From NCBI RefSeq assembly GCF_964355755.1, contig NC_092670.1, positions 1,044,201 through 1,108,200 of the forward strand: a DNA stretch of 64,000 nt, written 5' to 3'. The notes under the pieces are model-generated. The model saw nothing but the letters and a program-made list of their open reading frames with translations, did no database searches and had not been told where the DNA came from. Below are positions 16,045 to 56,000 of the stretch, in pieces. Position numbers and translations under genes: made by a program. Every line of letters starts with the position of its first letter. Within the stretch, counting starts at the first letter, position 1. This stretch comes from Antedon mediterranea. Taxonomy: Eukaryota; Animalia; Echinodermata.

Positions 16045-16078
<34 letters not shown>

Positions 16079-22818: not shown

Positions 22819-23456
22819 TAATTATTATTATTATTATTCACTTTTATTTCAAATATCAAAAAATTGACCAAAATTACAACTCGTGGCTAAGAGCCAAATT
22901 GCGTGTAAAATACATGTCATATCAAAAATATAAATATATATAAAAAATATGAAAAAAAAAAAAAAAAAAACAACAAAGAAGGGGAGAGCAGTCGCAAACT
23001 AGCAGGGGAGAAAATTAAGAATTTAGTAATTTGATGAAGTAGGGTATAGGGCTATTGGTAAATCTGGATGTTTTAGACGCTAGCTGGGTAATTTTGTTTT
23101 TATTTCTTAAATTCCTACCATGACAGCTATGTCTGGTCGGTGGGATTAAATCAGCTGTTTGTTTAATTTTGGGGAGATACTCAGCGAACTTGCGACAATG
23201 CTCCACCCTTCTTTGAGCCAAAGTCTCTAATTTAAGAAATTCAAGGGCACCAGAGTAAGAAAAGTAATCATTGCCTAACATTATACGGCAAGCCCTCTTT
23301 TGAACATTTTCAATACAATCGCTTAATCTACTAGACAGGCCAGAATGCCAAACAACATCAGCATACTCAACAACTGGTCTAATGTAACCACAAAAGGTCA
23401 ATTTAAGCTCTTCAATGTTAAAACCAAATCGTTTTAGTGATCGTAAAAAGAAAAGA
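22819..23456 (-). mobile_element. 5'-truncated CR1/L2-group LINE (ORF2 C-terminus + 3' UTR)
   Basis: ORF 23470-23015 (LFFLRSLKRFG..GYIRPVVEYADVVWH..IENVQKRACRIMLG..TSRFTNSPIPYFIKLLN) is a typical LINE ORF2 C-terminus; (AAT)n tail near 22820. Confidence 0.85.
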
Positions 23457-24121
23457 AACAATGCATGCACACAAAATTGTTCATTTTGTACTTTTGTAGT
23501 CGCTTTTTAGTTTCAAAATTTGACGTCTCTCGGTATTTAAGTCTCATAAAATAGTTGTTTTAAAATCATTATCCAAATTTTAGTATACGTATGAAATACA
23601 GGACATCTCAAGGAAGATTTTCATGCAACAAAACAAAAGTTTAAGTTATTTCTTCCAGATAAAATAATACACAACACAGTTAAAAAACATGAAATTTAAT
23701 TTTAAAAACTTGGCATAAAAAAAAATGTATTAACAATAAATGGCAGAACAAAAATTAACTTCAGTTTTCCACATTTTAAATGCTCAACTGTTACTACTAC
23801 TACATGAATTCCTTCATCGACTGAGCCGTTAGATTCCATCATGGAATCTGCCATGATGGCAGCAGACATGAAGTTCTTCCTACACTTTTTTAAAATCTCA
23901 AAAACAAAAATTTATTTCGCCACTGTATTAAATAAAAGTAAAAGTTAAAGTACTGTAAATATTCCCTGTATAATCTACTATTTATTTCAATAAATTGTTA
24001 TTTGGAAGTTTAAGTTTTTGGCAGTTAAGTTTTGAAAGTTATTTTGTGCATGTCACAAAAACTATGTTCAACATATTGTTCATTTACATACTATACTCAG
24101 ACCAGCGGTCATTGACTTTGG

Positions 24122-33100: not shown

Positions 33101-36100
33101 GCGGTCCGAGTTCGAGTCTCGGTTGGGGCGACTTTTTCTCATTCTCACAGATTTCCTCATCTTTATCGTTTCAAATTAATTAATTAAATTTCAGTATATT
33201 ACCGGGCGGTTTAGAATTAATGTTCGTTGCCTGATTTGTTTATATATATATATATATATATAACATAGATCGGCATGCCATAAACAATTTCAAATTTATA
33301 TTATAAAAGGAATATGCAATAAATGTCTATTTCGTGTACAACCAGGGACATTTAAACTAAATAGTGAAATTAATAAACAGTCATATTTAGAATTTAAAAT
33401 ATTATATAAAAAAACCATATCAGATATCGTTCGACGATTGCTGACAGAATCAATGGAAAAGGCAAAATTAACACAGTTATAAGACAGGAATCGTACAAAC
33501 TTCCGTTGAATATGTAAAAAGTGTAATTATTACCACTGTAGCTAATATGATAATGTTCATCCTCTGACTCATAATCAGAATATTCATCTGATTTCTTGTC
33601 ATCGTCATCCTCCCTTCTTTCCGTGTTTAATTCATCTTGATCAGTTTGTTCCAACAACTGTCTGATCCATGTGGATTCAGTCTTGTCTTCCTCCTCACTT
33701 TCTGGACTTTTGTCACTTTGAAAAGTAACCTGGAAAAAACGAGATAAAACCATCAAGAATCAAGATTCTAAAGAGCTATAAATTTACCTTTCCTTTGGCA
33801 ATAGAGAATTATATATAAAACTAGAGATACTATGTTGAATAGAACATGAACCCAGTCAGATAAATTTTGATCAAGTTTAACTCCTCAATGTGGTAACTAA
33901 ATTACAAAACTGCTGAATTGTATCAATATACGTTTATCCAAGAGGCTCCTTAATTATTTGTAGTGCTTTTTAAAGATACTTTAAGTGGACACCTTTGGGT
34001 CCCAACAAATTGTCCAATTAATAGCACCATCTACTGAATAGTAGTTAATTCATTTTTGACCACATGAAAAGTGTCTTTTAACAGGGGGAGGGAAGCTATG
34101 TAACAACAATAATGATGGAATGAATGATGTTAAGCTCCGTCTACACTAATCAATCACTAGTTTGACAAAAAAGTGTGATGTTGGCCAAATATGGTAGTGA
34201 AATACCCAAATATGGTAGTGATATGACATCATCATGTCCATGGGCACATTACATTTTGTTGTCACATAAAGTTGGAGTGTAGACAGAGCTTTACGAATGA
34301 GTGAATGTTGCATCATCATAACCTGTTGAATGACAGGATCATAGTGGTCAGCTCTCTTCTTCCCTCGCCAATTGTTAGAAAAGTCTGGATTGCGTTCAGC
34401 ATACTTATTTCCACGGAAAATCTTGGGAATTTCACTTATTGAAATATCGATACTATTCTGAAAAAAAATAATACAAAGTTCACATTTGAGAAGAACACCG
34501 ATTGCCAGACTCATTTTCATCCTCGGAGTAGTTGATCCCACCATAATGTAAACATTTATATCATTAAGTATGGCTTACAATCAGTAGGCAAAAGGAGTTG
34601 AGTAAAACGGAAAGATACAGAGTATACAATGTACAGTACCTCATCAATATCCAAGCCTATAAGCTTGTTCATCACGCTGATACAGGTTGGAATGGCAGTG
34701 AGTTTATTGCGAAACAGGTCAAGATATTGTAAATCTACAAGCATGTCAAATGACACCGGAAGCTCTGAAATCTGAAAAGTTTGAGAAGACTTAGTCAAGT
34801 ACTGTACGATAATATACTGGAGTAATTTTAATTTCTAAGCTAAAACACCAGATAATAAGTTTGTATTTTAATTATATACAGTTATAAAAATGAAAGAATG
34901 TTTAAAATAATGATTAATACAAGTATTACTAATAATAATATCAACAAATTCCATTCTATTTATCTCTAGTGTTTTATATCTACAGTATGATGTTACCTCA
35001 TTGTTATCAAGTCGCAGTTCTCTCAGCGCTTGAAGTTCTCCAAATCTTTCAGGCAGCTTTGTTAAATGATTTTGCGAAAATAAGCACTTTCTTAAATTGT
35101 GTAAATTAACAAAACTATCTGGTATTTCACAAATCATGTTCTGACACAAGTCAACATCTTGCAAATTACAGAGGCACCCGAAATCTTTTGGTAAGGAAAA
35201 CAACCTGTTTTCATCAAGGTGTAGCTCTTTTAAAGACTTAAGATTACCAAAGAGTTCTGGAAGCTTTGGAATCCAGTTACCATTCTGAAAGCCACGCCTC
35301 TCTAATTCTCCAATAACACTACCTAAATGTACGTACTCCAAATTGACAAGACAACCAAATGAGGATGGAAGATCTGTTATAGAGTTGCCAGCAAAGTCAA
35401 ATCTTTTCAATTTTACGCTAGTCTCTCCAAAGGTGTCAGCTAGAGGGCTCCCTTGTAAACAGTTGTCTCGCATCGTAAAATGAAGTAACCCTGGAAGCTT
35501 TGCAAACCAAGCTGGCAAGATACATATTCGATTGGAATCAGCATGGAGTCTTTCAAGAATAGGTGCAGACTTAAAAGTATCTGGTAATATACTAATTTGA
35601 TTATCAGAAATATCAATACATTTTAAATTTGTTAGATTTCCAAAATCTTTTGGTAAGGACTTTATTTTATTGTTAGAAATGTTTAGTATTGTTAAAAAGT
35701 TCAAATTGCTAAGACTATCTGGTATACTCTCAAGTTTGTTGAAGCAAGCCTCTAAGATTTCCAGATTCTTAACACGACCAATGTCTGCAGGCAGCGCTTT
35801 TAAAGCATTCTCATCTAAAACCAGTTTCTTTAAAGACTTTAGACAGCACACTGCAGAACTTAGTTCAATAAGATGATTGCCAATAAGATGAAGATCTTCA
35901 AGACACAACAGGTTACCTATAGAGTCTGGAAGTGTTTTTAATTTGTTCTCATTTGCGTGTAGAGTTTTTAGTCGTGTGAACTTCTTGATACTATCTGGTA
36001 AATGTTCAAGAAGGTTTCCAGATACCAAAAGGTCTTCTATATGTTCATGTTCATCAAAATCAATTTCCAAGTCAGTCAATTCTTTAAATTCAAGATCTAA

Positions 36101-36217
36101 CCTTGTGATTTTTGAATTATTATAACCATTTGTTTTGGTCAACATGTCAATCTTAACATTGGACACCGCAGTGCTGGCTCTTTTAGAGCAACCAATGGCG
36201 TCATTCATTCTGGACAT
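24122..36217 (-). CDS. Leucine-rich-repeat protein (~647 aa; SHOC2/Scribble-type LRRs) with acidic C-terminal tail
   Basis: Phase-consistent exons 36217-34997, 34771-34640, 34457-34323, 33729-33534, 32703-32587 and 24264-24122 (total 1944 nt). About 17 LxxLxLxxNxLxxLP repeats, an Asp/Glu-rich linker with two ENWEEE motifs, and C-terminus ...VCQPGQFDDVD*. No signal peptide. The last exon is inferred from phase match and a good acceptor (ttttcag). Confidence 0.8.
24280..25053. repeat. (AATGATAGT/AATGATAAT)n microsatellite, block 1
   Basis: Directly visible 9-bp periodicity. Confidence 0.98.
25054..27556 (+). mobile_element. Non-autonomous Helitron
   Basis: Starts TCTATATATA, ends CTAG after a GC-rich hairpin (CTAGATGGTACGC..GCGTGCCATCTAG); inserted between A and T of the microsatellite with no TSD; internal direct duplications (~25330-25515 vs ~26090-26345). 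Confidence 0.85.
27557..28368. repeat. (AATGATAGT)n microsatellite, block 2
   Basis: Directly visible 9-bp periodicity. Confidence 0.98.
28366..32184 (-). mobile_element. Apparently full-length Rex1/Babar-like LINE (APE endonuclease + RT), interrupted by a Kolobok element
   Basis: APE motifs GNVRSL, FTETYL, GGGLCLYIN, IINGDFN, SDHN; family motif IRPYYLPREFSHV; RT motifs LRPVALTS, GVPQG, KFADD, YKYLG; (TTATC)n 3' tail; 5' end begins ATGGCG. Confidence 0.92.
30898..31523. mobile_element. Non-autonomous Kolobok-like DNA transposon
   Basis: TTAA TSD (30894-30897, 31524-31527); AG...CT termini with imperfect TIR AGCCCCATTCCCTAC / GCAGGGAAGGGGTCT; excision restores the LINE reading frame. Confidence 0.85.
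32185..32322. repeat. (AATGATAGT/AATGATAAT)n microsatellite, block 3
   Basis: Same unit as blocks 1 and 2. Confidence 0.97.
33082..33262 (+). repeat. Partial copy of the tRNA-carrying, (TA)n-flanked dispersed repeat
   Basis: Reverse-complement match to ~52005-52170; bounded by (TA)n on both sides. Confidence 0.85.
34133..34290. mobile_element. Harbinger-type MITE, copy 4
   Basis: TTA|AGCTCCGTCTACACT...AGTGTAGACAGAGCT|TTA. Confidence 0.8.
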
Positions 36218-37307
36218 CAGAAAAGTGCACTGCTACAGTAGTTGTTGTGGTTGCCAATTGTCAATTTCACTCTCTACCATTCACTCACTTCATTTCTGCA
36301 AAAGCAAATACATAACTAGTACTACTAGTATTCAATTATTATTAAATTATGGCCAATTTTAACAATTTCATTGTTTGCTCATTATTTCTGTTTACCGCTG
36401 TGTCCAAGCAAGATGCCGGTGTATCCAACATACCAACTTTATATTATTAAAATAGACCTCGCGCCGCTAACCCTTTATTTTAGGATAGGGCTATAGGTGA
36501 CTACTACCTAGCTAGCCCTGTAACTGGACATCTCTATCTATCCAGGGAGTTGTATTATTATTTTACAACTCTCTGATCTATCTAGCGTACTAACTAACTA
36601 GGCCTAGGCTAGTAGTAGTAGTAGTAGGCGCTAGGCCTCTACTCCTCCTACTGGAGGCCTACCGTATACTGTAATATAGTAATACTATTAAATTAGGACT
36701 ACTCTCCTACTACTATGTAGGTAGGCCTGGGTATGTAGGGTGGACTAACTCTGCTCGAATAACAAGAATAATTCGGTGACTATATACAAACATCATAAAT
36801 AAATAAATATTCTATTTTTACCAAACAACCGGCATCAAAATACCACAACAACACCACACACACACACACCAACCATGGAGGTATAAAACATGCACCAACC
36901 GACCACATGGGCGGCGCCCTGCGACTTTTGTTAAGATTCAATTCTCGCATTAAATAAAACTTTTTTTCCACACGTTCACCAACTTTCCAACAGTAGGCCT
37001 ATCTCCGTCATGTTTCAATATTTATATTGAGCACTCACAAGACTGTGCTTTATTGTTGCTAATTATGTATTATTACAGGACATACCGTAGTTGTCATTCA
37101 TAACATAGATAAGAACAGGATTCCGACAAATCTGTCTTTATCATTAATTTATAAACAAACAAGTTACTTATCTCGTTCTGACAACCTTTGGGCTGAAATA
37201 TTGATTATAAGTGCATTAACTTATTTGCTAAAGTAGTACCAACTGAAAACACTTGCTAGGCCGAATAATTTCGACGATAAATATTACTGCTACAAATTTT
37301 CAGAATT

Positions 37308-40300
37308 ATGGCAAGGGACAGAGGATACTTCTTGCTTTTAGTGATTGTGTGTTCCTTTTGGAAAACAAATTCAGGTATTTATCAGCAAACAAGCATGTAG
37401 GCCTACACGAATAAAATTAATCAGTATCAAATGAATGATTAGGCCTATGTGAGTTGAATGAGGAATGCAATGCATTGAACTATTGACTGTTCTATTGAAC
37501 GAGGCGGAAAACAGTCATTCTTTCTACTCATGCAATGTTCTCTCCATTCACACAAACATAAACGTCATTTTAATAATGCACAGCAAGGAAGTTTTTCGAT
37601 TTTTATATATAGGAAGACATACAGTAACAATGTCAAATGCAGTGGTGGCGCCAGCGGGGGGGGGGGGGGGCTACGGGGGCTCTAGCCCCCTCGTCGGGGA
37701 GCCTAGCCCCCCCGTCGGGGAACACGGGTACTTTTTGTCGGGGAATATAATATACAGTAAAAAACGTTCGCGTTCACTTCATATAGCTTCAGCGTCTAGA
37801 AAACCACGACGTTCCATTGACCGTGAGAGTACGTCAGAGGGCTAATATGCACGTTTATGCATTCATTATTTCCAGCGATCTAACTTACTACTAAACATTA
37901 GCTAGGTATCCCTTTGTACGAATCGTTCAACGTTGGGTCGAGACGCGTGATATCAAGTTTCATCCAGGGACCAAAATGTGTAATGTAGTTATTTTCCAGG
38001 CGAAGTTTACCGACGGTTACCGAAGGGAACACGTGTACTTTTTGTCGGGGAATATAATATACAGTAAAAAGCGTTCGCGTTCACTTCGTAGCTAGCTCCA
38101 GCGCCTAGAAAACCGCGACGTTTCATTGACCGTGAGAGTACGTCAGAGTGATATTATGCACTTTATATGCATTCATTATTGCCAGCGATCTAACTTACTA
38201 CTAAACAATAGCTAGGTACGCACTTGTCTGGCGGTATCCCTTTGTACGAATCGTTCAACGTTGGGTCGAGACGCGTGATATCATGTTCCATCCAGGGACC
38301 AAAATGTGTACTGTAGTTATTTTCCAGGCGAAGTTTGCCGACGGTTACGTCGTGTACTGCGTCGACGTACGCTACACTACAGCAAAAACGAATTATGTTA
38401 ATTGTTCGCATGTTCACCAATTTTTTAATTTACAAGTAACCTTCTGTACCGTGGGGCACCTAAAATAAATTTTTCATCCATTACTAAACAAAAAACATGC
38501 CATTTTCGCTTAGCCAACATCTTATTATAGCTATAGTTATTACATTTTCAATATCCTGTATGTCATGAATTTCTCACCACTCGGAAATCCAGATGGTACG
38601 CATGCATACACCTGGGAGGAATAAACTTATTTCCCCGACTGAAAAAGGTCTACGCTTGCGTTTTTTAAGCCTCTAGGCCTGATGTTTCCAAAGTATAAAA
38701 TGCAATTTTTTGAAGACCTGCAGCTCTAGTTTTAAACATTTTCTTAGTTCAGCCCCAACAATAAAGCTGGTCATATTTCGAAGAACAAGAAGTACATTTT
38801 CTGGGACCTAACATCTCTATTTTTCAAACATTTCTTAGCTCAGTCACAACCATGATAGGGATTTATATATATTTTTTCATTTTTTGAAGTATAATAAGTC
38901 CAATTTCCGGGACCTCCAACTCTATTTTTCTAAATTTTCTTTGAACTTTTGTTTTTTAAATTGAAAAATATTGATTGAAACAGTCATCGCGCATCTTTTT
39001 TTGCACGCAGTATTTTATTTATGCATTATAAAAAATGGAAAAAATGGCTACCCTAAATCTGATTAAAAAGACCTCAAATGACGCTAGAACGCGTTGCTTC
39101 GGGGGGCTTCGCCCCCTGGACCCCCACCGGGGGCCCTTGGCGGCTCCTTGGCCCCCAGCCTAGTGATGCTCGCTTCGCTCGCATATAGCCCCCTCGTCGG
39201 GGAATGTAGCCCCCGGGTCGGGAAGATCCTGGCGCCACCCCTGGTCAAATGTTTAAACGTCAAGAAGGTATATATTATATCCTTAGTAAGGACCAGCTGT
39301 GCTTGGGAGATTCCCCCTTTCCATTACATTGTTTTGTAATGATTATTTATGTATGTTTATGTTTTTGTGAATGGAAATAAAGAAACAAACAAACTGTATT
39401 CTAAATGGACACTTTTCTGTGAATGTATGTTTTAATACTATACTGCCAACCTCACAGGGGACACTCTTATTTATCTGTGAATGTATGTTCTAATACTATA
39501 CTGCCAACCTCACAGGGGACACTCTTATTTATCTGTGAATGTATGTTTTAATACTATACTGCCAACCTCACAGGGGACACTCTTATTTATAAGAGGTACT
39601 TTGTGGGTCCTGAACGCGTCTCCTTTGTTATAGGAGGCGAGTTCTACGTCTGTAACTCCACTTACTATTCATTTATAGGAGCAGGCGTTGCATTTCCAAG
39701 CGGTATTGTATTTGAGCCTGTTAACCCTTCTGACGTCACGGAAGAAGACGCACTCTATTACGCTGACTCGAAGAGTACAGGCTCGGAGCTTTTTCTGACG
39801 TCACAATACGAATCACAAAAGTTGACCCTAAGTCTTAAGGTTAAAGATTTTGTAGCACCAGGCAGTCTTTACTTCAGGTCACATCCGACTTTGTTTGAAT
39901 GTCTTCAGAAAGTGAATACTAATGTTTCAGAGACAGGGAGGGTAAGTATCTTAGATAATTCATTTTGTGTAACTGCTTGTCATTATTCGCATTCATATTT
40001 GATTTTGACATTTTTATTAAAGTTAAATAGTCAAAACTTTATTTTACCCGATGTTCTAAGAGGATATACTTACTACAAGAGATATTAGGCCTATTAGCAA
40101 GACATACCTGCTAGTTTTGTAAATCTTCTTTCGCAAACTTGGTTAGGAACCATTTTAAGAGTTTGAAGTGACGTGATACTGACGACACAATCCTATTTGC
40201 ACAGATTACGATAGTGAATGGCTACAATCCTGATGGAAGGACCTTAGAAAGAAACGAAAAAACCCTTTACTTGGCATCAGGTGCCGGTATTGACATCAAG

Positions 40301-43300
40301 GTAGAAGCGATTACTGGATATACTACATCCACACATGACCTCGCAGATGTTGTTATTCAGCAATGTTTTCCCATTTTCCAGGTAAGCTTTTTATCTCTTC
40401 TCTGGACTTTTAGCTTCTACGTTCTTTGCTTTCTCTTTCATGTCGTTCTGGATTTACTTATTTCATTCTTCTTCTTTTGTCTCACCTCATCCTTCGTTAT
40501 ACCATTTTCCTCTTTTTCTTTCTACTTCTCTCTCAATTTTCGTTCTAATGCTTTAAAATAAATATATTTATTGATGTAGGCCTAATAATAATAATGTTTG
40601 TGAATAGAAAATAAACAGAGACATGGGACTTGTAGTAATGGATGACCGCTTACATGTTCATATCAGAGGATCTGAAGATGGCGAACCGTACTACAGCACT
40701 CAAGGCGGCTCGATGACGGATAATGAATTTAAAGATCATGTCTTGAACGTTATCGACAAAACCTATGGTGAGTGCTACTGTGGACACTCCATCCGCATTT
40801 ACCCCAATATGTTAAAGCTACAGAGGGTTCGACTCCAATCTTTACCCCATAGAGGAGGACGTGATGACATTTTTGACATCGGCTAATGCTGCTGTGTATG
40901 TTTTCTAAAGAATATATACAATGTACATATTTTAATAAACGTTCTAAAATGCTAATGTGTATTTTGCTTAGATCCCGTTCATTTTCCTTCAATGTGTTCT
41001 GTGAACCCATTTACATCCGGAGAAACATTTCCAAAAACTGCAACATCAGCAGAAGAGGCCGTTGGGAAAGTAGATCATCCAATAACTAGGAATGATATTG
41101 AAGACTTTGAAAAGTACAGTAATTTACTTAATTACTTCATTAATTGTGTCATTTTAAATAATATAGGTTACTTATATGGATCATTTTCCGAATCGTATAA
41201 CTCCTAGTCTACTTAGTAACTTTACTAACTGGTCTACACTGGCAAACGGCGTACAGCTTTTGACAAACGGCAGGAGTTTGCCTGTGAGTTTGTAAATAAA
41301 TTGGCTTTAGTTATCCATGAAATGTAAACGACACTAGCAAACTCTGAGTTTGACAAGTTTTCCAAAATTTGCTATTCTACAATTACTGAACATTTTTGCG
41401 TATGGTTTGTAAAATCAGCGAATTAAACGACAATGTTTATAGTCATGTGACGAATGCCTCCAGTAAAGCCTGTTTTACACTAGAGCAAACTTTTACTAAA
41501 ACGTTTTGTTCAAAACTGCGAGTCTGCTCAGGGTGTCACGAAAGCTCAGACCACGAAAGCTCAGACCCCCTAAGGGTTCTAGGACACCTACCCCCTGGAC
41601 AGTTACCCCCCGGATGTTTACCACCCGGACAACTACCCCCTTAGGACAACTACCCCCCGGACAACTACCTCCTTAGGACAACTACCCCCTTAGGATAACA
41701 ACCCCCCGGACAACTACCCCCCGGACAACCACCCCCTTAGGACAACTACCCCCTTAGGACAACTACCCCCCGGTCAACTACCCCCCGGTCAACTACCCCC
41801 CGGTCAACTACCCCCCCCCCCCCCAATCTAAAAGTAGACAAATATATAGGACCGGTTTCTGTAAAAATGAAATCATCTGTTTTTAACGGGTGTTTCGAAA
41901 CTAGAGACCCGAGACCAGAGACCTGACACGAGACCAAATACGAAAAGGGAGACCTATATTTGGGTCGGTTCTAGGACACCTACCCCCTGGACAGTTACCC
42001 CCCGGATGTTTACCACCCGGACAACTACCCCCTTAGGACAACTACCCCCTTAGGACAACTACCCCCCGGACAACTACCCCCTGGACAACTACCCCCTTAG
42101 GACAACTACCCCCTTAGGATAACAACCCCCCGGACAACTACCCCCCGGACAACCGCCCCCTTAGGACAACTACCCTCTTAGGACAACTACCCCCCGGTCA
42201 ACTACCCCCCGGTCAACTACCCCCCCCCCCCCAATCTAAAAGTAGACAAATATATAGGACCGGTTTCTGTAAAAATGAAATCATCTGTTTTTAACGGGTG
42301 TTTCGAAACTAGAGACCCGAGACCAGAGACCTGACACGAGACCAAATACGAAAAGGGAGACCTATATTTGGGTCTCCCTTTTCGTATATTAGGGTCTCCC
42401 TTTTCGTATAGTGTGGTCTCTTTCTTCGTATAGTGGGGTCTCCCTTTTCTTATAGTGGGTCTCCCTTTTCGTATATTTGGGTCTCCCATTTCGTATATTT
42501 GGGTCTCCCTTTTCGTATATTTGGTCTCCCTTTTCGTATATTTAGGTCTCCCTTTTCGTATATTAGGGTCTCCCTTTTCGTATAGTGGGGTCTCCCTTTT
42601 CGTATAGTGGGGTCTCCCTTTTCGTACGTGGGTCTCCCTTTTCGTATATTTAGGTCTCCCTTTTCGTATTGGGTCTCGGGTCTCATGGTCTCTGGTCTCG
42701 GGTCTCTAGTTTCGAAACACCCGTTTTTAACCGATTATTCTGTTTAACAGCACGCTAGGCCCTAGATGTGCTAGATTTAAAGTACCGTACTTATTGAAAA
42801 AAACGGCCTGGGCTGTTTATTGTTTAGGTGGTTTTTAGGTGGACATTTATTGGAAGAAAGTTGTTTATTCAATGGGAGGGGGTATAATCTAATGGAAATA
42901 GACGCCGATTATTCCATATGATGTGTCATGGGAGTGACATGGTCACCGTTTATTTGAGGGGAATTTATTTAAAGATCGCCGTTTATTCGGTGAGTGAACA
43001 TTGAGGTCAAATATCAAAAGTGATATTATTCTTCAAGTGTACAAAAATACAAATGACAAATTTGAGACAAAAATTAATTCTTTTAAGACCAGTGGTTATC
43101 GAAGCATTGTCCTGACGCAAAAATTATTATTATTATTAGCGAACCCAGTCTTTACAGTAAATACAGGGAGTACTATATTCTCTGGGGGTAATTGTCAAGG
43201 GTAAATTGTTCCTAGGGGTAATTGTCCGGGGGTAGTTGTCCAGGGGTTAGTTGTCCTACGGAGGTAGTTGTCCTAAAAGATTATTTGCCCTCGGAGTATT

Positions 43301-46300
43301 GTCCAGGAAGTAGTTGTCCTACGGGGAGTATTGTGTCAGAGGTAGTTGTCCGCGGGGTAATTACCCGGGGAGGAGGGGGTAATTGTCCGGGGGGTAATTG
43401 TCCGGGGGGTAATTGTCCGGGGGGTAATTGTTCCTAGGGGGTAATTGTCCGGGGGGTAGTTGTCCAGGGGGTAGTTGTCCTAAGGGGGTAGTTGTCCTAA
43501 GGGGTAGTTGTCCGGGGGGTATTTGTCCGGGGGGTAGTTGTCCTAAAGGGGTAGTTGTCCTAAGGGGTAGTGGTCCAGGTGGTGGTTGTCCGGGGGGTAG
43601 TTTTCCGGGGGGTAAATGTCCAGGGGGTGAATATCCGGATACGCCCCTAAGACCTAAGATCACGAAAGCTAAGACCCAACACCTAAGATTACAAATATTT
43701 ATCTTTCGCACCTGCCTTCTATTTTAACTCCCAACATTTATTCTGAATACCACACCTTAGAATTGGCACTTTCATGAAAAAGAATCACATAAAAAGTAAC
43801 AAATACATTTTTAAATTGATGATTTTACAGACGTTTTTCTCGCACACAAAATGACTAGCCTACAGTACAGTAGGCCTACCCCATGGGCCATGTTCAATGT
43901 TTTTGTTTCTATGGAACGTCAAAAGAGCAAAAATTATATAGAGGGCTGAAAACTCTGTGGAGTCCATCTACAGTGTGGATGGAACAATGTAAAATTAAAA
44001 TTGTAATGATAATAGTATAATCATGCAAGTACGAAGAAATAAATACTGGCAAATAAATTTTAATTTAAAAATCATGATAAGTTTTTTTGTTTCGTTTTCT
44101 TTCTGTTTTTATACTTGTACTATTATTGTTGCTCTTTTGGCGCTCCATAGAAACAAAAACATTGAGCATGGGGAGCTCGAGGAGTTACATTGTCATTGCA
44201 GTATACAAAGAAACACATCTGTAAAATCATCAATTTAATTTTTATTAATTTATTTATTTGTTATTATGTGTTTCTCCTTCTGAAAGTACTTATAAGTCCT
44301 AATTTTAAAGTGTGGTGTTCAGGATAAAGTTAGTCAACAAATTTGGAGTCAAAATACAAGAAAGGCAGGTGCGTAAGAAAAACATCCTCTGAAGCAACAC
44401 AATGGGGTAAATATATACCAACAAACAACCCGTCAAGTTTGTTTGTTGTAAAGAAAAAATATACATTTACTCAACGGGCGAAAATAATGTGAGTTTATCT
44501 ATGTTTTGCGGTAGTATTAAATTATATTTATGGTAATAAATGAAACCTACTGTGTTTAAAATTATGTATGGATAAACAAGTATTGTTTTTAAGCTGTAGT
44601 ATATCTTAGTATTTGTAATCTTAGGTGTTGGGTCTTAGCTTTCGTGATCTTAGGTCTTAGGGGGTCTGAGCTTTCGTGGTCTGAGCTTTCGTGACACCCA
44701 GTCTGCTCATGCCCGCGATTAATAATGTTTTATTTTGTCTAGATTAATTCAGTATCCAGCTCGACTGATCGCCTTTGAAAACTCTGAACGTTCCTCAAGC
44801 TGGTGTGGAGACCAATCTCGGGGCTGTGTTGATTGTAGGAACACTATTTATGGATCAGCATTATCATCAAGGTATTGATGTTAATATTGATAATACATTT
44901 ATGACTGTATCAAGAGCCACTTTTTCTTCGACCAAAAGTGCTCTCAGTGTGCTTTAAAGTTAATAAGTGATTCTTTCAAATTCACCAAAGATTGTACTTG
45001 TGCTCACTTTAAGTTGTTTAATGATAGGCCTACAGTACTTATAAAAAGCTTTACTTTATGAATACAGATGCTCTGATCGGACAATGACTCCTAGATTAAT
45101 GAGCGTGTTACAGAAAATGCAAAAGATGACGTCAAATGCATATATTGGAGGTAATGAAATAATATAAATTCAGAATCATTGATTGATAAACATATTAATG
45201 TTTATGATGAAATAAAAACATCTCGCCACGGTAAAAGTAAAGGGTCACAAGTAATTTTTGTATAATTTGTTGATTCTAACTGTTGAGAGAAAACCTTTGA
45301 CTCAATTAAATTTGTAAAATTATCTTTTCAATAGAGAAACTTGTTATAATTGAAGCTTGGGATGAAGTTTACGCAGATGCGCCAGTAACTAGTGGCGATA
45401 ATCCAGAGGGCTCTCTGTACTATGAAGGTCGAGCAGCAAAGGTCACTCTACCTGTCGCAGACGATGGAAAACTCGGTCACGTGGCATCATTCGCACAGTG
45501 CAGTGGCGCGGATTTCGTTAAACATAATGGTTTGTTAAAAATATCAATGAGATGGTATAAAAGCCGTGGCTTGTGATAGGTCAAGTAATCACTTAGCCAT
45601 GTTTTATACTATTTGCGTTTATAAAGCGCGCCTCCATTCTGTCCGTGTAGGCCTACTGATTTCCCATTAAAAATGGGATGTAGGGCCTACTCTACTTTAA
45701 AGGTGTTTGAAGTGAATTTAATTATCTTAATTAATCACAGGTGATCATGTTTTCATTGCGGTACAGAAGCAGGCCGGATATGTCGCTCAGAAAGTTCAGT
45801 TTCCTAGCAATCAATTTATTGTCGTAGCTCCGCCCACACACCAGTTATCGCAACATGAACTGCCAATCAAATTTCAGGCCTATGGTGATAAAATGCCATT
45901 ATTTGACAGTGATCACCAGGTAACTAATTAGACCTTTGTATTCTATAAATCAAGCAATGCCACACATCAATCAATCAAGAAATTTCAACCAATCAAATGA
46001 TATAGATTTGGTGATTGAATAAAAGTTTGTCGCTTTAGTAGTCGATTCAATGGTAGTGAACAAAAATAACTGTCGATCAGTACAGTAAATGGACTGAATG
46101 ACTGACTTCCTGACTGAACTGTCCAACGACGTTTACTATCTGGAAGTTTATCATGAAAGTTACAAAAAATTATGGATAAAAAACTTCATTAAAAAAAAAA
46201 CTTATAAATTAAAACATTCATTGCATTTACAGAAGTTTAAAAATAGAATATTATTAAATATTACATGTATGAAGAAAGTTCTAACATACGCGTTACTTAT

Positions 46301-49248
46301 TAGATGGATAAGTTAGTGGCACAGGACTCATCGTTGTCGAACTTTGTTTCCATGGAATCACGATATCTGCGTTTGAATCCGCTGATTGCAAGGTGTTACC
46401 AGGCATTGATCACGAAGGAGAACAAATGGAGAGAAGGTACGTAATAATCGAATAACTTACTATAACCTGATGAATATAGAAACTTTATAAATTCTCTTTT
46501 GTTTTACAGGTAAACAAGAGGTAAACATTGACGTTCTCTGGTCTTACCTAACTAATATTCAGCGCAATGATTTGATGGAGAATGACGATCCGCGCTACGA
46601 CACGCCTGCTCTTGGACGCGCAATGCAGGTCATGTACGATCCATCATCCGTAGTAAATGACCAGGAAGTCTTCACACCAAGACGTCTAGTGAACCTTATA
46701 GCACACCAGTGTGGACCACTATTTCAAAAACCTGGATTCCAGATAGGCATTGGTAAGTAGGATATGGTAGAAACAATTAGCATATACATTGATGTTTGAT
46801 TGCCTTTTAAAAAATAGACATTAAAGAAAACATTAGTCTCTATTTGACACAAGTTTGAAAATGTTATTTTGTTTGCTTAGGGCTGTATAACGGTTCGGTA
46901 TTTGTAGACCTGAGAAGCGAATTCAAAGTCTGGGTTGAAGAACAACAACTACTGAACGGTGAAACATTGGAGGAGTTCACACAAGACGTGAAAGATCGAA
47001 CTAAAGCAGCGTTAGGTAAAGATTTACAACATTATTATGCGTATTGTAAACGTCATTTCTGTAATAAGGGGAGATTTAGAAATCACGACGGAAACTTTAC
47101 GTCTTACAATTTACTTAATTTGCTTTGAATTGCGCATGCCTAATTTATATGTATAACTTTTCTTTGGTTGTGTTTGTGAAAGTACAAAAAGTATGATGAA
47201 AAGTGTATGCAAGAACACTATAAATATAACCGCCACCTATGTCTAGGTGTTCAAGTTAACACATTTTAAATTTTCAAATTAGTAGTTTTGGATTTATGAA
47301 AAAATTTAAATAAAACTAGTTTGTTTGAGCGAATGACATGTAGTGTGAAACAAACTTGTTTCTACTTGTTTTAGAAAGTCGTGTAATAGACCCAGACGAC
47401 AAGACGACTGTGTGCAAATCTTCAGTCAAGCCAGAAAAACAGTCCATTGACTTTGAGCATACATTCCCAGAATCTTGGTCAGCTTTCACTGGCTCCAGCA
47501 GTTGCAAGTCAACTCTAGATACAGAGTTTTGCAAAACATCTGCGGGACATCGAAAAGAGGAGGTACTTAAAAGCAAACCAAGGACGGCTAATGTGTTTCT
47601 TTACCTTCTTGGTGTAAAAATGTTTATACAGGAATCATATATGAAACTAAATTTAAGCACTACTGTAGTTTAAATTATTGTACGTACTCTATAAATAAAA
47701 AATAGGTTAACTCATGCATTATTTCGTTTAGGTTGAAAGATTGTGGACAGAAATTACACGAAAATATCTTTACCGCAATAGGCAAGATGTGAGAAATGCT
47801 CTGGAAGGTTGTTTTGGCGGCTGCAGTACTTGCGAAGAAGGTAAAACAAAACAAATTAAAAATGTAATTACATTTTGTTGGTCTGGAACAAGATGTTGCC
47901 AACTGAAAGTTGCTAGATTCTAGTACAAATTGCTTAGGTAGCCTATCTCAATGGCTGTTGCTGCTTAATGCTACGTAATTTAATTGTTTGAAGGTTTGCA
48001 TGGCGAAATCAATATGTAAGTACACCACGTATAATAGTTCTAAAAAGTGTTGAGTTTCTTGACGTTTCGAACAATATACTTCGATGGTCCTCATGCTACG
48101 TAGTTCTTATCATACTGACTATGCTCCAAAATGAACATTTCTTTCGTTTGCTTGTCTATAGGCGTTTATTATGATGCCAAAATTGAAAGCTGTAACAACC
48201 TAATTCACTGGATACCATTTTCATTTCTCGAGGAACAAGACAGATCAAACTTCTATGCTCGGGAAAACCAAGAAATGAAAGCATATGCTTGCAAAGAACA
48301 TTGTATCGATACATCTCCAATATTCTCATTAGTCGGTAAGAATCTTCTTGTTTCACGGCAGCTTATCTAGGATTATTACCTAGTGGATCCAGGATGTCGA
48401 AAACAAGCATCCACATAATAACAAAGTTCCTAGAATGTAATGTAAAACATTTCTTTTGCATTAAGAAAGATCTAAAGTTTTTTTTTAAATTGTTATTTAC
48501 CAAATTATAACCACAGAAATTCTGATTTGATTATGGGAAAAAACTTGGACATCTATTGAACATCAACTGACTAGGCCCAACACGTTTTCACCATTTAAAT
48601 AAACACGATACGATATCTAACTGTTATTATTCTATCAATTATTGTTGAAGCTCCATCGCTAGAAGCAGTGTTCCGACCTGACCCAAAGGAGAGTGCCACA
48701 CATGATCTTTACGCTGCAAATGAAAACCCACTGCCCGTCAATGATTTGCTGTACAGACTTTATGCACTTCATTCCAGAGGAACCGTTAAATTCTGGGTCA
48801 AAGACGACGAGGAACTTTTGACTCTAAAAATTCCACTACAGGTAGGCAATGCTAAAATAAAATTCGCAGATCAAAAGATCTTTGAATATGTGATCGGCTA
48901 ATTTTGATGTTGATTACATTCGGCATTGTTTCAAAGAAATCACTTTAACGTTTGCAATTGTTATTATCTTTGTAATTTTTGTACATATTTCAATTAGTAA
49001 CATCACAAAAACAGCGATCGTACGATTATCATCTACATGAATTGTTTTTTCTTAAATTATGATTTCAGGTGTTAATGGTTTACAATAAAGATATTACTGA
49101 TATCGAGATAAATGTTGGAGCGAAAGTCAACGTAAATAGCGTAATTGGAGTAATGAAGAGTCTGATTATGGATTGGTCAAAGTCAAGCTGTGCAGATTAT
49201 TCTAGAGAATATATGCCGCCATTTGTTGTCAATGCCATTTCTGCCTAA
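37308..49248 (+). CDS. Secreted ~915-aa protein: signal peptide - peptidase M15A-like - Hedge (Hedgehog-N) - M15A-like - Cys-rich/unknown C-terminal region; no Hint domain
   Basis: 17 phase-consistent GT-AG exons: 37308-37374, 39679-39941, 40205-40381, 40608-40767, 40972-41113, 44743-44871, 45068-45150, 45335-45529, 45741-45919, 46304-46436, 46510-46752, 46881-47015, 47375-47562, 47732-47840, 48162-48335, 48651-48841, 49069-49248 (2748 nt, no internal stop). Signal-like MARDRGYFLLLVIVCSFWKTNSG. Hedge motifs PITRN, SDRTMTPRL, KLVIIEAWDE, SLYYEGRA, GADFV, DHVFIAV. Confidence 0.85.
37640..39243. mobile_element. Non-autonomous hAT-type DNA transposon in intron 1 of the Hedge gene
   Basis: TIR CAGTGGTGGCGCCAG / CTGGCGCCACCCCTG; 8-bp TSD GTCAAATG; subterminal TAGCCCCC..GTCGGGGA repeats; internal ~300-bp direct repeat (37718-38020 / 38025-38350). 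Confidence 0.9.
39415..39590. repeat. Tandem repeat, ~58 bp x3
   Basis: TCTGTGAATGTATGTTTTAATACTATACTGCCAACCTCACAGGGGACACTCTTATTTA occurs three times. Confidence 0.95.
41575..43643. mobile_element. Foldback element with GGACAACTACCCCC subterminal arrays, inserted in the outer element's left TIR
   Basis: 8-bp TSD CCCCTAAG (41567-41574, 43644-43651); arrays of GGACAACTACCCCC at left and their reverse complement at right. Confidence 0.85.
42296..42722. mobile_element. Mutator-like MITE (innermost element of the nest)
   Basis: TIR GGGTGTTTCGAAACTAGAGACCCGAGACCAGAGACC; 9-bp TSD GTTTTTAAC; internal array of GGGTCTCCCTTTTCGTATA. Confidence 0.88.
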
Positions 49249-50028: not shown

Positions 50029-53000
50029 ATGTGTTTTCTAAGAAACTTAGGATGTATACTTACACTTTTGCTAATTTGCCAAAATACAGGTAAGTGTCTG
50101 TATATCTAACAATGTTAAGAGTCATACATTTGAAGAAGATGGATTTGTATACCAGTGACTCAATTACATTTAGACATTTTATAGGTATTTTGGTTTCCTT
50201 CAACAAGAGTCTTTATGATTTGATTTTATGTTCTGACGTCTCTCGGGAAATCAACCCAACAAAATATTTGAAAAAGAAAATGCAGAGAAACTGCCATTGG
50301 TCCGATTGGTTCCATTTTCCATTAAGATGAAACTCTTTGTCCTAATATATCCGAATAAAACAAATGCAAATTTGAATTTGTGTGTTAGTTTGGTAAATGC
50401 CTTTTACCTAAGTTTTAAATAAAACATAATTGGTTAAAGTTATTTTGCACAACATTTCAGGGGTATGTTATTGTCGTGAATGGAACAACTACAGTACCAG
50501 TTGGTATAAGATTTACGATAACAATCAGGTTGATTGGGTAACTGCGCACAGTACATGTCATAGAGAAGGAGGATCATTAGCTTCAGTGACGTCATCTGGT
50601 GAAAATCAATTTGTTGGTTCATTAGGAAATGTTCATAATCTCTGGATCGGATTAAATGACTGGGACCATGAAGGGACGTTCCAGTGGACAAATGGCGACC
50701 CTATAGTAAACTATACAAGTACGTATTATATTTTAACCAATATTTTTAGTCGCATGGAAGCGACTCTATAGTTCACTATGTCGGTCGGTCTGTCGGTCTG
50801 TCGGTCTGTCGGTCTGTTGGTCCGGTATCACTATGCGTTTTATCGCTTTCTGACCTTATCTTGATATCAGTTTAATCTAGCTAAGTCAATTTTTTACAGT
50901 ATATTCCTTATGGCCAGGAATCGATGTGGTTATGTTTTCACGGTGCGCAATAAAAAATTACGCGGTCTACGCACGATTTAACGAAATCACGTTTGTAATC
51001 ATATCTTCACAACCATGAATCACAATTAAATAAAATTTGGTACTCATAAATTTCAGGGCATAAATCATCATATGGCAATACAATTACGTGCGTAGCGCAT
51101 GTAACGCATGCGTACGCGCGCTTAAAATTTACAAAATTTATTTTCGACGAAATAAGAGTACGTTTCAGGCAATTTTAAGCGTTTATAAAATTGCCATGAG
51201 TGCGCAGATTTTTGCGCGCACACTGCGCGTTAAATGTTGTTGCGCACTCTTTTTGCCCGATTTCTGTTTTTTTGACTTACTTTTCAACTCGAAATTACGT
51301 TATACGAGCACGTCAAAAGTGACAGGCTACGCACGTGTAAATTAAAAAAATATAACTGTTTTTAAACATTTCAACATTTTTAAACATGTTCAGTAATTTC
51401 GGTCAGTTGGTAGGTTGGTCGGTTGGTCGGTAAACACTAAGCACGCGACTGCAGCCACCTATATGGCCTTGTTATTTTAAAGGTGACGGGTATGTGGTAT
51501 CCTAGATCGTAAGTATTCTCTTTGTATTTGTTTCTATTTCATAGATTGGGAAAACAAGAGTAACCATAATACGGACGGAGAGGATTGCACCGTAATGCTA
51601 AGTACTGGTGACAACAAATGGTCAATGAAAAATTGCAGCGACAACTACCATTTCGTTTGTGAAAAAGGTACCATTGTTATTAAAAGATATACTGAAAGTT
51701 AATTAATTAATTTAAAACGATAAAGATGAAGAAATCTGTGAGAATGAGAAAAAGTCGCCCCAACCGAGACTCGAACTCGGACCGCCATGCTTGATATGCA
51801 GATGTACTAACCATTAGACCACTGGGGCTTTCATGGTATAGTTCAAACTCGATTGGATAGCGACTCTTTAACATTCTCGGCGTGGTACGGCGGAACAGCA
51901 CTAGTCCTCAGTTGTATGCACGCACACCAGAGATCAAATTGATACGCCCTAATCTTTCAGTATTTTTATTCACAAGGCGGGATCTCCGAAGAGATACTTT
52001 TATATATATAAACACATCAGGCAAAGAACATTAATTCTAAACCGCCCGCGGTGATATACTGAAATTTAATTAATTAATTTGAAACGATAAAGATGAGGAA
52101 ATCTATGAGAATGAGAAAAAGTCGCCCCAACCGAGACACGAACTCGGACCGCCTGCTTGAAATGCAGATGTCCTAACCATTAGACCACTGGGGCTTTCAT
52201 GGTATTGTTCAAACTCGATTGGATAGCGACGCTTTAACATTCTCGGCGTGGTACGGCGGATCGGAACAGCATTAAGGCCGGTGCACACCGAACGCGAAGC
52301 CGCGAAGCGTCATGCGTCACGCGTCATTCGACGGATCGCTTTGAAAGTTGAATTGTCATGCGTCTATTAGTTTTTCTTGTCGGTTCCCACTAAACGCGTC
52401 ACGATGTGCTGATTCGTCGCGATTGCTAGGCCTAGGAGATAGTGGGTTGGCCAATAATACAATGCTACATTTAAAATAATCAGAGAAGATGACTCTGAAG
52501 TATTTCCTATGTAAGTTTAACCAGAGAAGAGTTAAATTAAAATGTAATTTAACTCTTCCCTGGTTACACCAATCACAGTGTTTGGTTTTGGTGGGAAAAT
52601 GTTATCCTTTTCCAAAGCCTGAAATGTGCATGATTGTATGTATATATCACAAGAACAGAAGAAGATGTATCCAATATCAATACAGTTACAAGAATTAAAG
52701 CATTTATTGCATGTTGATTACACGTACATATGTGATCTGCTGACTGTATTTATTAGTGGTGTTACAAATATCTTTCAACAGAGGTTATTATAACCATATA
52801 AAACATTTCATATAAACACGAACTGGGAATCTTCCTGGGTTTGTTACTTTCAAATATAAACTATAGGCCTAATATTAATGTAAAGTTTTCACATTCATTT
52901 TCTAATTATTATTAAATATTATATTATTCATGACAAAACATACAGTTTTTTTCTCATTTGATTAAATGTAATAAATATCCCAAACTCATATTTACACTGT

Positions 53001-56000
53001 ATATTATCTTATGACTTTTTCAAATAAATACACTTATTGAAATAGTGAATCATTGTTTTTAAAGGTATCATTAAATATCAACCATATTTTCTTTTTTACT
53101 ATTCCTGAATACTTTCGCAAAATAATATCAAAATAATAAATTAAAAATGTATCATCCCAAAAAAAAATGAAAATTGAAGAAATATTATTATTGTTAAAAG
53201 TGAATAACTAACCCTAAAGTGTTATACTGTATTACACACAACGAAAATGTTTTAAATATATCTTGTCCAAAAAATGACACTAAACTTAAAGATTTATTGT
53301 CCCATAGAATCATGAAAAATGAAGATTATTAAAATCAAATTTGAATAGGACATTTTGTAGTTTTAACAAAGTTAATCACTTACATAGAAAAAAAAACCCA
53401 ACAAACTTTTGTTTTCACTTATAAAATGAAAAAAATTCCATTAGCTGGCAGCCAATATGACTATTTTTTTAGTATTGGAGTATAACAAAACATATACATA
53501 TATTTCCATGTGTTCTCTATTGCTAAAAAAAGACATTCAGTTCAGCTTTCCTTCTATAACCACTTAATAAATACTAGTTACAGTCCAACTCCTCCTTAAT
53601 CTCTTCCATTTTCTATAAAAAAAATGAAACAAGTATTAAAAAATTGCTATAGTAAGGCATATTGCTCAAATCATTTTTTCTGGCCAATGTATGTCACCAA
53701 CTGACATACACATTTGAAAAAAGTCTATACAAACCTGTGTCAGCCTCATAATTGCCAGTCCACGTTTTTGAGGAGCAATTGCTCTTAATTCCATGGCAAT
53801 ATACTGGCCGCTTAAACTACTAGCTTGGTCATTGGTGGAGTTTGTAACGCTGGTAATAGCCTGAAGGATCCAATTTATCAATGTTCATCTAATTGACCTA
53901 AAAGAAACAAAAACAACAGTATTTATGTATTAATATTACTACTACTACTAGGCCTATCCTAGCCTTACAACACTAAATCAACTAAATATTAGGCCTATAA
54001 ATATTAATTAATAATAATAAGTAGCCTAGGCCTAGGCTAAACCTAGCCTAGCCTAGTACTGTACTCATTTATTTGTAGGCTTAACCTAGGCTAGGCCTGG
54101 CCTAGCCTACTAGGGTATATGTAGCTAGGTAGGCCTAGCTAGGCCCTAGTATGGCCTAAACCTATGTAGGCTAGAAATAGAAGGCTTGCCATCACTTTAC
54201 AAATTGATCTCTGACGCGTTTTAGGTCTAGTTTTTCTGGCATTCTTCTACACAGATGTTTGTCTGAAATTATTGTCTTCATGCATTAATCCTTATGTTTC
54301 TGTCTGTGTATGACTTACTTCCCTTATCGTAAAGACAAGAAGGGTAAGTATTTCCATAAAGACCTCGCTCGTCAGCCACCATTTTTTTGCCGTCGGTGTC
54401 GTCGATGAGAGATATTCCTGACTTCTGATTGGTTGACGAACGCAAACCGCGCTCGCGACGCCTCAAAAAGTTGACCAAGGTTCAACTTTTGAAAATTCGC
54501 GTGCGAAGCCTTCGCTGCTGTCGTTTTCAACGCGTTGAAGTTGAAATTCGACTATCGTACACTGTTCGCTTGTATGTTCACACTGGAAGCGTCCGTCGCC
54601 TGCCGCGTGCGTCACTTTTTAACGCGAAATTCGCGGCTTCGCGTTTGGTGTGCACCGGCCTTTAGTCCTCAATTGTACGCACGCGCACCAGAGTTTATAT
54701 AGCGCCGATAAACAATGATAGTGGCTAACGTGTTGGTTTTCAAAGGGATGTCCCAACACATTTTTGGTGATTTCAACTGCATATGCGCAGAGGGATTCGT
54801 GGTTGAAGGTAAAGAGGGTTCACGCTAGAACACGTTCAAGGAAAAAGTCGGAAAACAAGAAATGGTTAAAAAGTTTTTTTTTATAGATTTTAATAAATGC
54901 ACAAACTCAACGGATGATTGTCAGAATGGCAAAGGTATGGTTCATTTTAGAGTACACTTGTAAGTTGCGATCACGATTTAAAATAATATCTGATTACAAT
55001 ATTGCCAAATGTGTATTGCAGATTCAAGATTCAAGATTCAAGAAATTTTATTTGTCCATAAAAATGGAAATTCACTTTGCTTGGTAGATTAAAACAACAA
55101 TATTGCAACAATTTAAAAAAAACGTGCAGTATAATAACAGATTAAAAATACAAGATAAAAAGTTAAAAATACTGTTAAAAATGTAAAACTATTAAAAATT
55201 GCATTAACGTCTTACATTAGAATTAAAAATATGAATGCTATTTACGACGAAGGATTTTCTAGTTCTACAAAGATTTGCTCTTGGAGGTCGTAGCCTAATG
55301 CCTGATCTATTTAAGTTATAACAGTAATGTAACGGATGAGTGGGGTCTTTCATAATATTGTTTACTTTTTTAGAATACTCTTTTCATAGATAAATGAACA
55401 AGGCGTTAGATCAGCTTTAATAATACGTTGTGCAATTTTACGTGGTCTCTCAATATTTTTCTTATCATTTTCAGTAAAGTTACCATAAAAACATCCAATG
55501 CTAAAAGATAAAATACTTTGAATAATACTTTGATAAAATAGAATTAAAATAGTGTTATCAACTCTAATTTCCTTGAGTTTTCTGAGAAAGTAAAGCCTTT
55601 GAGATGCCTTCTTGGAAATCATGAGAGAGTTTGACTCCCATTTTAATTTGTTGTCAATTATAGTACCTAAGTATTTGTATTGGGTTACTCTTTCAACCTC
55701 AATTTCAATGAATGTGAAAGCTCTGCAAATGTTTGCAAAAATGGGGCCACTTGTTTTAACACATTTGGTGATTACAACTGCACATGCACAGAGGGATTCA
55801 TTGGTAAACGATGTGAAATAGGTAAGGTATGGTTCACGCTAAAACACTCTCTAAGTAAAAGTAGGAAAAACAAGAAATAGTTAAAAAGTATTTTTTTTAT
55901 AGATTTTAATGAATGCACAAACTCAACGGAAGATTGTCAGAATGGCGCCACCTGCGTCAACACACATGGAAACTACACGTGCACGTGCGCTGAGGGTTTC

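Follow-up and report, generated by a model that had tools for sequence, protein, structure and literature searches.

This study was concerned with a gene in a 64,000-nt window of the Antedon mediterranea genome (assembly GCF_964355755.1, contig NC_092670.1); all coordinates are positions in this window. Between 37308 and 49248 on the forward strand, 17 exons with GT-AG junctions join to 2748 nt that encode 915 amino acids (aa) followed by TAA, with no internal stop codon. The encoded protein is a Hedglet in which a Hedge domain lies between two units that resemble M15A peptidases, and these are followed by a C-terminal domain with a predicted CD38/CD157-like fold. Exons and domains are arranged as follows.

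37308-37374 (+): exon 1, start codon and signal-peptide-like segment, aa 1-22
39679-39941 (+): exon 2, from the short acceptor; unit 1 begins here
40205-40381 (+): exon 3, unit 1
40608-40767 (+): exon 4, unit 1
40972-41113 (+): exon 5, end of unit 1, then Hedge
44743-44871 (+): exon 6, Hedge
45068-45150 (+): exon 7, Hedge
45335-45529 (+): exon 8, Hedge
45741-45919 (+): exon 9, end of Hedge and start of unit 3
46304-46436 (+): exon 10, unit 3
46510-46752 (+): exon 11, unit 3
46881-47015 (+): exon 12, unit 3
47375-47562 (+): exon 13, linker with a conserved Cys, then start of the C-terminal domain
47732-47840 (+): exon 14, C-terminal domain
48162-48335 (+): exon 15, C-terminal domain
48651-48841 (+): exon 16, C-terminal domain
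49069-49248 (+): exon 17, C-terminal domain, includes the stop codon
39774-40985 (+): unit 1, M15A-like pseudo-peptidase, aa 55-227 of 915, exons 2-5
41001-45772 (+): Hedge domain, aa 233-416 of 915, exons 5-9
45806-47014 (+): unit 3, M15A-like pseudo-peptidase, aa 428-635 of 915, exons 9-12
47518-49248 (+): C-terminal Cys-rich domain, predicted CD38/CD157-like fold, aa 684-915, exons 13-17

The 17-exon gene is real, and the intact open reading frame (ORF) proposed in an initial annotation of this DNA was recovered. With exon 8 as the query, one identical protein was found, the 950-aa NCBI model XP_071952023.1 of Antedon mediterranea, referred to here as P0001. It is the same as the 915-aa ORF apart from 35 extra residues that open exon 2, and P0001 residue numbers are the 915-aa numbers plus 35. 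The NCBI acceptor of exon 2, at 39574, falls in the third and last copy of a 58-bp tandem repeat (39416-39590, 3 copies). The orthologue of Anneissia japonica (73% identity) and all 14 further relatives in the alignment lack the 35 residues, which are disordered in the AlphaFold2 model. For these three reasons the 915-aa form is preferred, and the NCBI N-terminus, whose acceptor is likely repeat-derived, was rejected. Support for the exon junctions comes from the uninterrupted frame, from the NCBI model and from conservation, and several relatives are encoded by single ORFs on contigs of 3-4 kb. No second copy of the gene was found by tblastn within the 64-kb window.

The Hedge domain, which the initial annotation had placed in exons 5-9, was identified there by both profile and structure. 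Pfam HH_signal matches P0001 with an E value of 7.4e-15, and no other Pfam family passes. An AlphaFold2 model made from 16 sequences had a predicted local distance difference test (pLDDT) of 81.1 and a predicted template modelling score (pTM) of 0.70, while a first fold from 3 sequences (pLDDT 42) was too poor for the flanks. In the model, Hedge (P0001 268-451) superposes on ShhN, IhhN and DhhN over about 148 residues, with Z scores of 18-21.6 and a root-mean-square deviation (rmsd) of mostly 1.6-2.2 Å. The zinc-ligand positions are occupied by Y404, K411 and F445, and the acidic (E/D) residues of the calcium groove are partly retained. The full zinc triad was found in 0 of 42 non-bacterial Hedge rows and in 6 of 6 bacterial-type rows, where the 48 rows are, among 150 listed homologues, the profile matches that extend to the motif and are 85 residues or longer, in proteins of 200 aa or more, and "bacterial-type" was assigned by amidase or lysozyme fusions and likeness to published BacHh, not by source organism.

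As first annotated, the protein has no Hint domain (PF01079), which was found neither in P0001 at E<=10 nor in 60 relatives at E<=0.001. The only GCF in P0001 sits about 300 residues past Hedge, in the helical Cys-rich part, and unit 3 directly follows Hedge. The N-terminal Cys peptide that would follow the signal peptide is absent, and unit 1 precedes Hedge. The Hh exon-2 donor position, as given in PMC8052667, falls inside exon 9 in this gene, about ten codons past intron 8; this agrees weakly with an origin separate from the hh gene.

Units 1 and 3 are an internal duplication, as their similarity had suggested in the initial annotation. The alignment of unit 1 (P0001 90-262) with unit 3 (490-680) by hhalign gave P 99.3 and a score of 130.5; the reversed alignment scored 15.8 and 30 column shuffles scored at most 21.8. 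Against Hedge the units aligned poorly by sequence (P 9.6 and 0.6). It is fold and embedding that link the flanks to M15A peptidases. Among 48,161 chains searched, unit 3 matched the Streptomyces zinc DD-carboxypeptidase 1lbu (Z 10.2, rmsd 2.6 Å, 119 residues aligned), and in the ESM Atlas it matched M15_2/M15_3 and M15A/MepK clusters (features 0.91-0.93, TM 0.65-0.68). In addition, a search of a viral library matched phage peptidases, many of them labelled M15 or M15A, from E 5.7e-6.

The M15A reading of the flanks held for the predicted fold, but no Pfam M15 family matches the flanks of P0001 and the zinc triads are lost. The H-x6-D / H-x-H motif and the general picture of Hh, Hedgling and BacHh were described by Roelink in 2018 (PMC6027127). 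Unit 1 has the D and the H-x-H, with Leu in place of the first His, and unit 3 has no triad residue; the complete triad was found in unit 1 or unit 3 of 0 of 16 class I proteins, the class with the layout of P0001. However, among 17 aligned units, one, the first unit of the relative P0027, has the full set, and this links the units to real M15A enzymes. With the M15A peptidases (1lbu; MepK/YcbK-like) the units share the fold and a terminal glycine-aromatic strand pair, and they differ in the incomplete triad, the lack of a Pfam match, an added disulphide and their place inside an animal secreted protein. Judged by the model, the flanking units are decayed M15A peptidases.

The initial annotation read three units of the Hedgehog/DD-peptidase fold, which stands, and left the C-terminal 230 residues uninterpreted. 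These residues are predicted to adopt the ADP-ribosyl-cyclase/CD38 fold. P0001 719-950 matched Aplysia cyclase (Z 10.3), porcine CD38 (9.8) and CD157 (9.3), and all three cyclase representatives among the 48,161 chains rank right after Hedgehog and cover both lobes colinearly. Human CD38 entries gave Z 10.2-10.7 over about 190 residues spanning 47-280 of the CD38 chain, the whole two-lobed fold. In the search of the 48,161 chains, unrelated alpha/beta folds matched the second lobe only, with Z <=6.8. Foldseek likewise placed the cyclases (E 7.5e-4) as the best matches after Hedgehog.

Glu226 of CD38 is essential and Glu146 is used in hydrolysis (PMC12356396), and the active-site residues of Tox-ARC are given as [ST][DE], S and E (PMC3482391). 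In 45 aligned C-terminal domains, no column reached 70% Glu. D, S or T is common three residues ahead of column 882 (P0001 numbering), the most acidic one, and to judge from the alignment the pattern of this column looks like a helix capping box. By the CD38 register that we assume, the equivalent of E226 would be column 891, which is E in 3 of 45 rows and mostly Q, K or R; by the same register, the E146-like place is acidic in 31 of 45 rows and a putative nucleotide-site Trp is present in 37. The domain is likely inactive, as far as its conserved columns indicate. It has the predicted two-lobed fold in common with the ADP-ribosyl cyclases (CD38, CD157, Aplysia cyclase; bacterial Tox-ARC/Tac1), over about 190 residues, but differs from them in that no conserved catalytic Glu was found, in its 10-13% identity, in the lack of a membrane anchor and in its placement behind pseudo-peptidases. 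It would represent an unrecognised branch of the CD38 fold, invisible to sequence search and outside the known cyclases. A complex prediction for unit 3 with this domain, run without an alignment and with the partner fold uncertain, scored 0.00 and was given no weight.

The N-terminus of P0001 is hydrophobic, as are those of its relatives, and no internal transmembrane-type segment was found, that is, no internal 19-mer exceeds 1.23 on the Kyte-Doolittle scale. Both observations agree with the signal-like N-terminus and the soluble, secreted-type protein of the initial annotation. Eighteen cysteines of P0001 are near-invariant across the 16 aligned rows. In 13 of the 16 rows the exon 13 linker, between unit 3 and the cyclase fold, has a polybasic furin-type site, and 12 of the 14 rows with a complete C-terminus have a dibasic site followed by a short tail. 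This class I tail, the C-terminal 25-35 residues, is charged and Trp-rich in the same 12 of 14 complete rows and could be a released peptide. Both crinoids, Antedon and Anneissia, are without either basic site and without the tail. In most relatives, furin would cut the precursor between unit 3 and the CD38-like domain and then again ahead of the tail. The cut halves may stay disulphide-linked, because the linker Cys and the nine downstream Cys make an even number. Since the crinoids have lost both sites and the tail, it is proposed that they would secrete a single uncut chain.

A word-based homologue search gave 3 proteins. A search of 1.84 billion representatives with a hidden Markov model gave 643 matches at E<=0.001, 40 of them at 1e-30; 150 were listed, and organism names were sought for 20 of these. 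Class I proteins are about 920-970 aa long with the same five-part layout as P0001, and named carriers are Asterias, Glandiceps, Branchiostoma (two paralogues), Potamilus, Sinanodonta, Patella, Owenia, Argopecten and Crassostrea, with a longer form in Solemya. Class II proteins (about 1400 aa; named in Octopus and Sinanodonta) have two or three tandem Hedge domains, and in P0022-P0024, P0026, P0028, P0029, P0032 and P0034-P0036 the N-terminal several hundred residues have no Pfam match. The complete module of unit, Hedge, unit and cyclase fold is also found at the end of two longer proteins. One, of 2253 aa, is from the sponge Oscarella pearsei (P0021) and has trypsin and PLAT domains; the other, of 2145 aa, is from the choanoflagellate Craspedida sp. 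UC1 (P0030) and has a C2 domain and a Peptidase_M15_4 domain, the latter with intact-looking motifs. In P0021, two degenerate wall-peptidase-like stretches (about 720-920 and 1130-1330), each followed by a peptidoglycan-binding-like motif, were seen by eye; Pfam and self-BLAST gave no confirmation.

Many relatives have the unit and cyclase module without Hedge, some of them after fibronectin type III (FN3) or cadherin-like repeats. Six such proteins (P0041, P0051, P0065, P0067, P0081 and P0083), 2700-4300 aa long, contain an internal segment that is strongly hydrophobic and end in this Hedge-less module; several of them also have FN3 or cadherin-like domains. An M23 domain is inserted in the unit and cyclase module of P0045, and P0105 has a lipase domain. 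The bacterial-type Hedge proteins P0103 and P0143 have amidase, glucosaminidase, lysozyme and peptidoglycan-binding domains. No relative of P0046 was found among viral contigs.

In a tree of Hedge domains, the two crinoids group together (100/100) within a 17-row group (96/81) that also holds class I proteins of starfish, amphioxus, a hemichordate, an annelid and molluscs. The 18 class II rows likewise form a group (96/96), and the sponge Hedge groups with the bacterial-type rows (97/90). A quick tree made from the C-terminal domain places the sponge beside class I (Shimodaira-Hasegawa value, SH, 90). The Hedge tree was built from sequences other than animal Hh and Hedgling, so that the branching of Hedglets relative to Hh lies outside its scope. 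That the module is present in both a sponge and a choanoflagellate speaks against its having arisen from Hedgehog, and these members suggest that the Hedglet module is older and predates it. The relevance to the Hedge domain's origin that the initial annotation had claimed is upheld.

Hedglets were named by Jägers and Roelink in 2021 on a domain of about 105 residues, from molluscs, echinoderms and amphioxus (PMC8052667; bioRxiv 10.1101/2019.12.17.880039). The domain was predicted to be non-catalytic, its distribution was called "enigmatic" and derivation from Hh was considered plausible (PMC8052667). The gene described here encodes a Hedglet, as judged by sequence. The published amphioxus Hedglet XP_002607850.1 belongs to the P0015 cluster, and residues 305-414 of the published XP_002599309.1 match the Hedge stretch of P0010 by eye; P0010 and P0015 align end to end with P0001 and fall in the same 17-row group (96/81). 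Like P0001, the published Hedglets have a Hint-less Hedge at residues of about 300-420 with the catalytic residues lost, whereas the crinoid form differs from its relatives in lacking both basic sites and the tail. The initial annotation had proposed a third architecture, unless homologues should prove to be an already characterised family. The architecture is indeed distinct from Hedgehog and Hedgling; the family, however, had already been named in PMC8052667, which considers only the Hedge domain in its available text, so it is in part a described one. The gene is therefore a further member of a named but uncharacterised family and not an unknown third architecture.

The available text of the published account covers the 105 residues and holds nothing on the flanks, the CD38-like part, furin sites, the tandem-Hedge class or sponge and choanoflagellate members. 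The term "hedglet" was met in only one work, in its two versions (PMC8052667 and the bioRxiv preprint), and the available text of PMC9695228 does not mention the family. Our literature search, with subscription journals and figure images outside its reach, found no account of the M15A-Hedge-M15A architecture, the CD38 fold, sponge or choanoflagellate members, or the furin-type sites of relatives and their loss in crinoids. An Oscarella expressed sequence tag with Hedge and without Hog or VWA, reported by Bürglin in 2008 (PMC2362128), may be a member of the family.

P0001 shares the Hedge fold (Z about 21), a partial calcium groove and likely secretion with Hedgehog, but it has no Hint domain, lipidation sites or zinc triad, its Hedge is internal and the donor position lies inside exon 9. 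With Hedgling, which also occurs in sponges and choanoflagellates, it shares a Hint-less and catalytically incomplete Hedge; it differs in having no VWA, cadherin or transmembrane part and in a Hedge spread over five exons, whereas that of Hedgling is contained in one (PMC8052667).

The function that we tentatively favour is that of a secreted, non-enzymatic binder whose most likely ligand, at the surfaces of the body, is bacterial peptidoglycan; of the roles considered in the initial annotation, peptidoglycan recognition is the better candidate. A non-catalytic binding role is suggested because the protein is probably secreted, disulphide-rich and composed of four enzyme-derived modules without catalytic residues. 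Peptidoglycan or the bacterial surface is suggested as the ligand because three of the modules derive from peptidoglycan peptidases, relatives are fused to wall enzymes and the oldest named carriers eat bacteria. Named carriers include bacterivores and suspension feeders, namely the choanoflagellate, the sponge, crinoids, bivalves and amphioxus. The emptied peptidase clefts would still hold stem peptides or glycans, and three of them would give avidity. The analogy is with the peptidoglycan recognition proteins, the non-catalytic members of which bind peptidoglycan in emptied clefts.

Several points count against a peptidoglycan-binding role. Starfish, limpets and octopus carry the family and are not filter feeders. 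A fold alone gives no ligand, and the binding role is predicted from the model; the direct structural match of unit 1, obtained on the poor first model, is weak (MepA, Z 5.7). The Hedge domain, about 1.7 Å from ShhN and with a partial calcium site, could bind Hh co-receptors or sulphated glycans. The CD38-like match has an rmsd of about 4 Å at 10-13% identity, and sequence profiles gave no link to CD38 (0 PDB matches and no match to Pfam Rib_hydrolayse). CD38-like activity may also be possible in view of column 882, which is E in 28 of 45 rows and D or E in 42. Among the rival explanations, a secreted matrix or mucus scaffold, the dead domains of which would bind host glycosaminoglycans or matrix proteins in a structural or adhesive role unrelated to bacteria, is somewhat unlikely but would account for four non-catalytic-looking modules rich in disulphides; ShhN binds heparin and chondroitin sulphate according to the titles of structure entries, and large relatives place a unit and CD38-like module after FN3 or cadherin-like repeats. 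Such a scaffold does not explain the fusion of several relatives to cell-wall enzyme domains, and P0001 is without collagen-like, mucin-like or repeat segments.

The initial annotation had also considered a ligand or decoy of the Hh pathway. The absence of the N-terminal Patched-binding peptide and the choanoflagellate and sponge relatives weaken this idea, and a non-lipidated modulator, acting as a decoy for Hhip, Cdon or Boc or as a competitor for heparan sulphate, is unlikely. Its appeal lies in a modelled Hedge structure very near that of ShhN, with the E/D residues of the calcium groove partly kept, and in the report that every animal with a Hedglet also has Hh (PMC8052667). However, there is no Hint and no N-terminal Cys peptide, unit 1 replaces the first 22 residues by which Shh binds Ptch1 (PMC8052667), and the zinc gripped by Hhip is lost. 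Moreover, a sponge and a choanoflagellate have the module, both of them from groups described as lacking Hh (PMC6027127, PMC8052667), and many relatives have the unit and CD38-like parts without Hedge. It is quite improbable that the protein is instead a targeted effector, the units docking on bacteria and a furin-released CD38-like domain acting as an NAD(P)+ glycohydrolase or cyclase with a shifted acidic residue. The whole two-lobed cyclase fold was matched (CD38 47-280), column 882 is almost always acidic, the assumed register gives the Trp and the E146-like acid at the frequencies above, and a furin site stands just ahead of the domain in 13 of 16 rows. Against this, there is no invariant Glu, the alternation of E and D at column 882 resembles a helix cap, the presumed E226 place is mostly Q, K or R, and the crinoids are without the cleavage site. 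Bacterial enzymes of the cyclase fold are antibacterial (PMC12356396), which would suit an effector. Finally, the CD38 likeness could be a common alpha/beta arrangement in a domain unrelated to cyclases, given the rmsd, the low identity and the absence of a profile match. This is very unlikely, with all three cyclase representatives directly below Hedgehog (Z 9.3-10.3) and colinear in both lobes, and with unrelated alpha/beta folds confined to the second lobe.

Beyond the binding role, a wider and doubtful interpretation is that the Hedglets represent a third Hedge lineage, of pre-animal age, in the form of an antibacterial module that is secreted, assembled from enzymes of bacterial conflict, namely M15A peptidases, a Hedge peptidase and an ADP-ribosyl cyclase, and carried from choanoflagellates and sponges to deuterostomes, in which the decayed clefts would recognise peptidoglycan and deliver or present a furin-released CD38-type domain. 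If this were true, Hedge would have come into the animal line as a module that senses bacteria and would have become a morphogen later. The relevance for Hedgehog origins lies in a conserved four-module anatomy that is also found in a sponge and a choanoflagellate, some members having intact wall-peptidase motifs, and it connects bacterial-type wall peptidases with the eukaryotic Hedge domain in a way that can be tested.

The introns and surroundings of the gene contain several other features. A 3.17-kb insertion in intron 5 (41531-44699) has perfect terminal inverted repeats of 44 bp and is flanked by a 10-bp duplication; inside it are 15- and 22-bp tandem arrays. Sequencing run X2 covers introns and has no exon joints, and was taken as DNA; one of its contigs joins 41520 to 44700 without the insertion, which therefore is a polymorphic DNA transposon, probably a non-autonomous one. 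A high-copy repeat in intron 1 (37640-39250), with X2 depth up to about 100,000 compared with about 35 for unique DNA and with similar short sequences at both ends, is probably another transposon. By eye, a leucine-rich-repeat exon (34868-36232, -) lies head-to-head upstream of the Hedglet gene and a C-type-lectin-like exon (50430-50771, +) lies downstream; both domain types are common in invertebrate immunity. LINE-like reverse transcriptase ORFs and transposase-like fragments, also recognised by eye, are at 28511-30928, 23015-23506, 55362-55838 and 15429-16621, all on the reverse strand, and long microsatellite arrays of the ATC/ATT type are at about 24000-25200 and 27400-28400.

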